DNA of 64,000 bases from Reclinomonas americana ATCC 50394. Taxonomy: Eukaryota. Positions 5,253-5,872 of this stretch are shown one piece after another. The stretch's first letter is position 1; each line of letters starts with the position of its first letter. The DNA lies in the NCBI GenBank assembly GCA_048213135.1, contig PS015081.1, positions 106,785 to 170,784 of the forward strand, read 5' to 3'. The notes below the pieces were generated by a model. The model worked only from the letters and a program-made list of their open reading frames with translations. It searched no databases and was not told the DNA's origin. A program made the position numbers and the translations under genes.

Positions 5253-5872
5253 TCACTTTTCCTCGCCAGTCGCAGCGCCCTCTGCAGCCTTGAGGTCCGT
5301 CCACTGCACACCGACCGGTACCACAAATGGTCAGAAACCGAGCACAATGTGAACAAAGACATGCACAGCGCACAGAGAGAGAGAGAGAGAGAAGAAGAAA
5401 AAGAAGAAGAAGAAGAAGAGGGAAGGAGGGAGAGAAAGAGATCGAAGCAACGAACGTCCACTCACCTTGACTTGAAACTCAAGTTCCGTGGACCCATCCG
5501 CATCCCGCTCATGCTCAATCGCGAATGTCGACTGGCGCAGCGGCACAGCAACACGCTCACCATTCACCTGCAGCAGCATGCGTGCATGACAATGAGTTAG
5601 CATGCGTTGTGTAAAAAATCACACTCACTCTATCTCTCACACAGAAACGCACCTGAATGCGGAACACACCCTGCCCGTTCTCCACGGCATCCGCTAGCCG
5701 ACGCAGAGTCGACACAAAGTGCGTGCGACCGACTTTGCGCTCCACATCGCGCTCACTGCACAAACAAACAGCAATCAGCACACACACTCTCACGCACGCA
5801 CACACAATGCACAGACAGAGACACTCACGCAGAGGAGAACGCGCGCTGTGCATAGGTAAACGCTCGCAACAT
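5253..5872 (-). CDS. amphi-Trp domain protein with a putative mitochondrial presequence (4 exons: 5872-5829, 5755-5653, 5567-5466, 5303-5253)
   Basis: The spliced 300-nt CDS gives MLRAFTYAQRAFSSAERDVERKVGRTHFVSTLRRLADAVENGQGVFRIQVNGERVAVPLRQSTFAIEHERDADGSTELEFQVKWTDLKAAEGAATGEEK*. It has the amphipathic LRRLADA helix, the IEHER motif and ELEFQxKW, typical of prokaryotic amphi-Trp proteins. All three introns are GT-AG and keep frame. Confidence 0.8.

Follow-up and report, generated by a model that had tools for sequence, protein, structure and literature searches.

Amphi-Trp proteins constitute an uncharacterised prokaryotic family on which almost no literature exists, defined by a C-terminal strand in which charged and hydrophobic residues alternate up to a final Trp. 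The window, i.e., the whole stretch of DNA analysed here (64,000 nucleotides of Reclinomonas americana ATCC 50394; assembly GCA_048213135.1, contig PS015081.1, forward-strand positions 106,785 to 170,784), carries at 5253..5872 an intron-interrupted gene for such a protein. The locus raises the question of how a member of this family entered the nuclear genome of a jakobid, in which compartment its product resides and what it may do there. A eukaryotic member of the family appears to be undescribed, as no paper on one was found in the literature searched. The reading favoured here, which taken as a whole is evenly poised, is that of a nuclear R. americana gene obtained by lateral transfer, the new exon 1 of which would direct a small, non-enzymatic binding oligomer to the mitochondrial matrix.

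Retention of the stand-alone form under selection in a eukaryote would mean that the protein can be useful without operon partners, and its apparent retargeting narrows the function to something workable in a matrix-like compartment. As the host is a jakobid, the gene also tests the balance between ancestral components and later additions in the bacteria-like mitochondrial proteome of this group. Since the gain of introns and a presequence by bacterial genes in protists is well known, the surprise is moderate.

Gene structure, family membership and haplotypes

The gene is predicted to be spliced from four exons on the minus strand, joining in frame to 300 nt (99 amino acids plus stop codon). 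Exon 1 (5829..5872, 44 nt) provides the start codon and an Arg/Ala/Ser-rich extension of 15 residues that is free of acidic residues and has no bacterial counterpart. It is followed by intron 1 (5756..5828, 73 nt, phase 2, GTGAGT..TGCAG; 72 nt in the other haplotype), which if left unspliced yields an in-frame stop at the donor. Exon 2 (5653..5755, 103 nt) encodes the N-terminal half of the amphi-Trp domain with the RDxE segment, the LRRLAD helix and the first strand, and is separated by intron 2 (5568..5652, 85 nt, phase 0, starting with GTGCGT; 87 nt in the other haplotype) from exon 3 (5466..5567, 102 nt), which encodes the C-terminal hairpins with the conserved Glu-His-Glu and the alternating acidic/hydrophobic strand. 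The microsatellite-rich intron 3 (5304..5465, 162 nt, phase 0, starting with GTGAGT) lies directly 5' of the invariant Trp codon; this terminal Trp of the family is the first codon of exon 4 (5253..5303, 51 nt), which also holds a short acidic tail and the stop codon. All three introns are of the GT-AG type with TGCAG at their 3' ends, and branch-like CTGAT, CTAAC and CTGAC are present in introns 1, 2 and 3, respectively.

Scored with a profile built from 100 bacterial homologues, exons 2 and 3 reached 36.7 and 34.4 bits; among the 1,479 six-frame pieces free of N that the window yields, the next best reached 5.0 bits. Introns 2 and 3 as modelled ranked first among 7,153 distinct GT-AG models (90.2 bits; runner-up, 82.7 bits), retention of intron 3 giving 79.5 bits and absence of introns 37.5 bits. 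Exon 1 cannot be selected by homology and was selected by splice consensus and agreement between haplotypes: only the adopted one of 31 formal options pairs a GTGAGT donor with a GTGCAG acceptor. Unspliced and upstream-ATG alternatives, as far as compared by eye, fail in the second haplotype. The four-exon model of the first-pass annotation is thus borne out by the profile ranking of introns 2 and 3, the GT-AG consensus and the identical product of the second haplotype, and the ORF listing confirms that no single ORF contains the whole protein.

Between the amphi-Trp ATG and that of a divergent intron-bearing gene lies a spacer of 74 nt (5873..5946), which leaves little room for a further 5' exon and is likely to be a shared promoter; 5 indel events distinguish the haplotypes in the upstream region 5873-5990. 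Two exons of the divergent gene (5947-6444, plus strand) matched nothing in Pfam, and its product presumably resembles Mediator subunit Med9. Elsewhere on the plus strand of the window, an intron-bearing enolase gene (22934-24600; Pfam PF00113) encodes a GGKHAGG segment, which we take to resemble archaeal-type enolases, and a very large multi-exon gene (32236-46016) encodes NHL-like and Ig-like repeats with a GPS-like segment near the end, by eye resembling a surface or adhesion receptor.

The core had been assigned to the amphi-Trp family, and this assignment was corroborated. A pattern scan of GTDB contigs yielded at least 111 stretches; full-length proteins were obtained from 103 of 112 matches, with few falling outside 69–90 amino acids, and the best of them shares 59% identity over 73 amino acids with the spliced product. 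The spliced product scored 92 bits against the profile of 100 bacterial homologues, and all six close homologues tested exceeded the curated cut-offs of both TIGR04354 (31 bits) and PF20068 (27 bits). When single exons rather than the whole protein were scanned, exon 2 matched TIGR04354 with 13 bits (E 0.098) and gave no match to PF20068. Across 368 prokaryotic rows, 21 columns are conserved at 90% or more; the jakobid protein retains 20 of these and is small (99 amino acids) and mostly one domain. Its residues 77–84 alternate between charged and hydrophobic, ending in Trp84 from exon 4.

Searches beyond the bacterial set added little. In metagenomes, a pattern modelled on the insertion-bearing form matched 2 loci, one bacterial member and one chance match, and viral contigs gave 1 partial match of 24 residues among 107 candidates. 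No candidate emerged from word-based protein searches with the regions encoded by exons 2 and 3; these searches are insensitive, as they also missed bacterial proteins sharing a nine-residue stretch. Single exons retrieved nothing usable from plasmids, PDB sequences or the Atlas, and the homologue alignment matched nothing below E 1.4 among PDB sequences. The Atlas entry for a homologue contains bacterial clusters only, the taxa of which do not give the range of the family. A TIGR04354 match on contig C392 of the assembly proved to be a chance match inside another gene. Three rare longer proteins (clusters of 1–2 members) carry the subfamily domain fused to N-terminal partners; one fusion weakly resembles the Hsp70 C-terminal region (E 0.00055, short of the cut-off), and the partner in one of them is presumably CYTH-like. 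These three were set aside from the comparisons.

A second copy of the gene is located on contig C70, where it is syntenic, 93% identical over 2.5 kb and encodes an identical protein; a protein search of the assembly found only the copies on C70 and C73. The exons differ by 3 substitutions, all synonymous, and no indel in 300 nt, the introns by 6 substitutions and 6 indel events in 320 nt (Fisher p ~0.03 for exons versus introns; p = 0.015–0.04 for three of three changes being synonymous). Exon 1 is unchanged, which is not significant alone. With silent-only exon changes and 20 of 21 near-invariant residues kept, the gene looks alive, and the pattern supports the view that it is intact and under purifying selection. 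Together with the intron structure, it also supports the earlier proposal of a prokaryote-type gene domesticated in a eukaryote. Window positions 3466-13423 and C70 represent two haplotypes at ~94–95% identity, and GspE and IscU are likewise present twice, so that haplotype comparison provides a handy exon test for this genome.

Host genome and origin of the gene

The assembly comprises 108 Mb in 16,441 contigs. The GspE gene on contig C292, once two introns are set aside, agrees with the R. americana GspE of PMC8134430 (Supplementary Data 1) in a comparison by eye over 400 characters of the sequence printed there. Intron-bearing genes for cytochrome c1, Hsp60, IscU and GcvH were also detected (the N-termini of the first two fall in assembly gaps), indicating an aerobic mitochondrion with ordinary matrix proteins. 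Contig C1 is a bacterial chromosome with a 16S operon, which we take to be Bacteroidota-like, C2, likewise large, carries an uninterrupted GroEL gene, and C14726 holds a short cox1 fragment resembling the land-plant mitochondrial gene. Matches to cox1 in the assembly were bacterial or plant-like only, and a host 18S gene was not found in it.

Such contigs could suggest that the amphi-Trp gene is itself a bacterial contaminant, or else a dead pseudogene, the assembly evidently holding bacterial DNA (C1 with its 16S gene) as well as a plant-like cox1 fragment. Against this stand three spliceosomal-type introns, the location among intron-bearing eukaryotic genes, synteny on two haplotypes, silent-only exon changes, the 20 of 21 conserved residues and a protein search of the assembly that returned the two allelic loci only; contamination or decay is therefore barely credible. 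The eukaryotic host claimed at the outset agrees with these neighbours, with the synteny and with the GspE match to R. americana.

In bacteria, the subfamily is rare and patchy, making lateral transfer likelier than a mitochondrial relic. Counting the centre genome in each case, it was found in at least 10 of 401 genomes in the class of a Micavibrio centre, at least 18 of 81 in the family of that centre, at least 19 of 301 in the class of a gammaproteobacterial centre (one genome unpublished) and at least 16 of 251 in the phylum of a Polyangiaceae centre. The Micavibrio centre presumably belongs to Alphaproteobacteria in GTDB, and its NCBI lineage places it in Bdellovibrionota. A profile weighted to the jakobid exons retrieved 714 representatives, the best 150 of which, when inspected, included no eukaryote-looking protein and none closer than ~61% identity. 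With a second profile, no eukaryotic homologue was seen among the best 120 of 4,018, where one may hide in 50% clusters or lower rows; organism names are attached to only four of these 120, all of them Myxococcota.

A quick tree of 253 rows placed the jakobid protein beside a myxobacterial clade. More careful trees of hand-picked rows recovered it as sister to the clade with named Myxococcota, both with 86 rows (support 99/83) and with 54 rows under a mixture model (support 98/86). All trees rest on 66 columns with the query on a long branch, and the profile used to collect the myxobacterial sequences itself included the jakobid exons. Constraining the protein to the main Micavibrio-type clade is 1.9 log units worse and not rejected (AU p 0.47). 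Its residues form a mosaic, myxobacterial-type in 7 columns and main-clade type in another 7, and its best pairwise matches are from Gammaproteobacteria and Actinomycetota.

These data bear on the alternative that the gene is a relic of the mitochondrial ancestor, moved from the endosymbiont to the nucleus and kept in jakobids like T2SS and Min. The host is indeed a jakobid with a mitochondrial-type GspE, the protein has a presequence-like start, 18 of 81 Micavibrio-family genomes carry the subfamily, and placement with the Micavibrio-type clade is not rejected by the AU test; ten retained ancestral features of this kind are listed in PMC7050145. Yet the subfamily is rare in the class to which the Micavibrio centre belongs (10 of 401 genomes), the best trees place the jakobid protein elsewhere, and nothing eukaryote-looking appeared among the best 150 of 714 or the best 120 of 4,018 proteins. 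By text search, as opposed to homology search, the amphi-Trp name and motifs are absent from the 864 candidate mitochondrial proteins tabulated for Andalucia (PMC7050145), and nothing relevant was found in the text of the Naegleria/T2SS (PMC8134430) and diplonemid (PMC12699882) supplements. A relic origin is thus regarded as unlikely, and equally so its full version, in which the endosymbiont would have contributed a mitochondrial protein, so far undescribed and with an oligomer fold absent from the PDB, that jakobids retained while almost every other eukaryote lost it. If true, it would add to the ancestral mitochondrial features and provide a first cellular context for the amphi-Trp family. 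The more probable course is lateral transfer from a donor outside the Alphaproteobacteria, possibly a myxobacterium, with introns and a new exon 1 gained thereafter. Of the lateral or endosymbiotic origin left open by the first-pass annotation, the lateral branch is hence favoured by trees and rarity, and the endosymbiotic one is less favoured without being rejected (AU p 0.47).

Gene order in bacteria offered one further lead. Among 367 flanking ORFs of 75 bacterial loci no neighbour recurred in more than 5 loci, and the 16 loci of the myxococcal phylum shared no common neighbour beyond one pair. The sole recurring pattern was the order atpD-amphi-atpC in 15 of 19 loci of the Micavibrio centre's family, which could be taken to indicate that the protein is an accessory factor of the F1 ATP synthase. 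The same spacer, however, contains an inserted ORF in 14 of the 29 loci of this family with both genes in view (15 are without), and only 3 of these inserts are amphi-Trp, most being unrelated small ORFs. The atpD-atpC spacer of Micavibrio is an insertion hot spot that takes unrelated passengers, and the link to ATP synthase was marked down accordingly. Moreover, 63 of 81 genomes of the family have no match, atp genes are absent near the 16 myxococcal-phylum loci and near the non-Micavibrio loci, and the operon-linked copies require 3–4 changes on the trees, rendering a role in ATP synthase very improbable.

N-terminal extension and predicted targeting

The jakobid protein has 16 residues before the RDxE motif, compared with 3–14 (median 6) in the 101 of 103 bacterial proteins that were measured, and its extension exceeds the longest bacterial one by just two residues. 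Residues 1–15 contain no Asp or Glu and two Arg, have a hydrophobic moment of 0.71 and display an R-x-F-S motif; the absence of acidic residues from exon 1 and its terminal R-x-F-S-S motif, both noted in the first reading, were confirmed on the sequence. An acidic pair follows directly after the extension. Four presequence criteria, set after the sequence had been seen and consisting of simple rules instead of a trained predictor, were applied to the 1,335 ATG frames of the window: all four are satisfied by 2 frames, one being the amphi-Trp gene, and three of the four by 41 frames. None of the 103 bacterial N-termini satisfies even three. These rules are crude, given that IscU of this genome satisfies only one of the four. 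The organism's own GcvH and IscU have acid-free extensions of 30–40 amino acids, compared with 12–15 for amphi-Trp.

From these sequence features, exon 1 (5829..5872, minus strand) is predicted to encode a short matrix presequence with an R-2/R-3 cleavage motif, and a mitochondrial location of the protein is considered rather likely. The acid-free amphipathic N-terminus would be read by TOM/TIM23. In line with the processing rules of MPP and Icp55, MPP cleavage would fall two residues downstream of Arg10, and Phe12 would be lost to an Icp55-type trim, leaving a mature protein of 87 residues, close to the size of bacterial amphi-Trp proteins.

The protein might instead have been acquired laterally and have stayed in the cytosol or nucleus, exon 1 supplying only a start codon and a neutral linker. 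The shortness of the extension (15 residues) with an acidic pair following at once, the bacterial extensions of up to 14 residues and the 41 of 1,335 frames with three of four criteria all speak for such a linker. They are set against the rarity of the complete combination, including R-x-F-S at the exon end (2 of 1,335 frames, one of them this gene), the lack of any bacterial extension with three criteria (0 of 103) and the identity of exon 1 between haplotypes, not significant alone. A cytosolic or nuclear protein is accordingly the less likely case, though one to be taken seriously.

Structure, proposed function and relation to known systems

An AlphaFold2 monomer of a bacterial homologue (pLDDT 93) comprises a helix at residues 15–30 and four strands in two hairpins, with the N-terminal segment unpaired. 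Foldseek returned no match to this model at E ≤ 0.001, and the best fold comparison among 48,161 PDB chains had a Z of 2.7 (rmsd 3.6, 58 aligned). The open monomer model suggests self-association: one helix and two beta hairpins, open in the monomer, may close upon oligomerization. Judged from strand alternation rather than from coordinates, the invariant Glu67, Glu69, Glu77, Glu79 and Gln81 would lie on one face, a putative site for a divalent cation or a basic peptide. The protein may function by itself in an accessory capacity, binding or buffering, rather than as one component of an inherited complex. From the conservation pattern, a non-enzymatic oligomer binding a cation or basic partner in the matrix is put forward as a weak and tentative proposal. 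At a net charge of −1, against a bacterial median of −6, the jakobid core is nearly neutral, which weakens a general acidic-surface role. In bacteria, one amphi-Trp protein, which may belong to another subfamily, ranks among the 20 most abundant of an organism in one growth condition (PMC13490349, Table 1).

The closest known relatives are the stand-alone amphi-Trp proteins of the RDxEK..EHER..EFQxKW subfamily, with which the jakobid protein shares the same 69-residue core, up to 59–61% identity and the terminal Trp. Unlike them, it is encoded by a nuclear gene with three introns and bears a 16-residue presequence-like extension; it further differs by three one-residue insertions, seen in 0, 1 and 2 of 252 other rows, and by its core charge of −1 compared with the bacterial median of −6. 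Amphi-Trp proteins of the GAK system belong to the same domain family (TIGR04354; system TIGR04354-TIGR04358). GAK genes were not seen beside the bacterial homologues within flanks of 1.5–2.5 kb, and a Pfam scan of 137 of the 144 nearest-neighbour proteins of the bacterial subfamily genes (7 long ones left out) detected no GAK kinase or ATP-grasp families. The T2SS, FtsZ-Min, RecA and other proteins described for jakobids (PMC7050145, PMC8134430) are likewise bacterial-type, encoded in the nucleus with introns and predicted to be targeted to mitochondria. These, however, are known multi-part systems regarded as ancestral, whereas amphi-Trp is a single, uncharacterised protein that is rare in Alphaproteobacteria.
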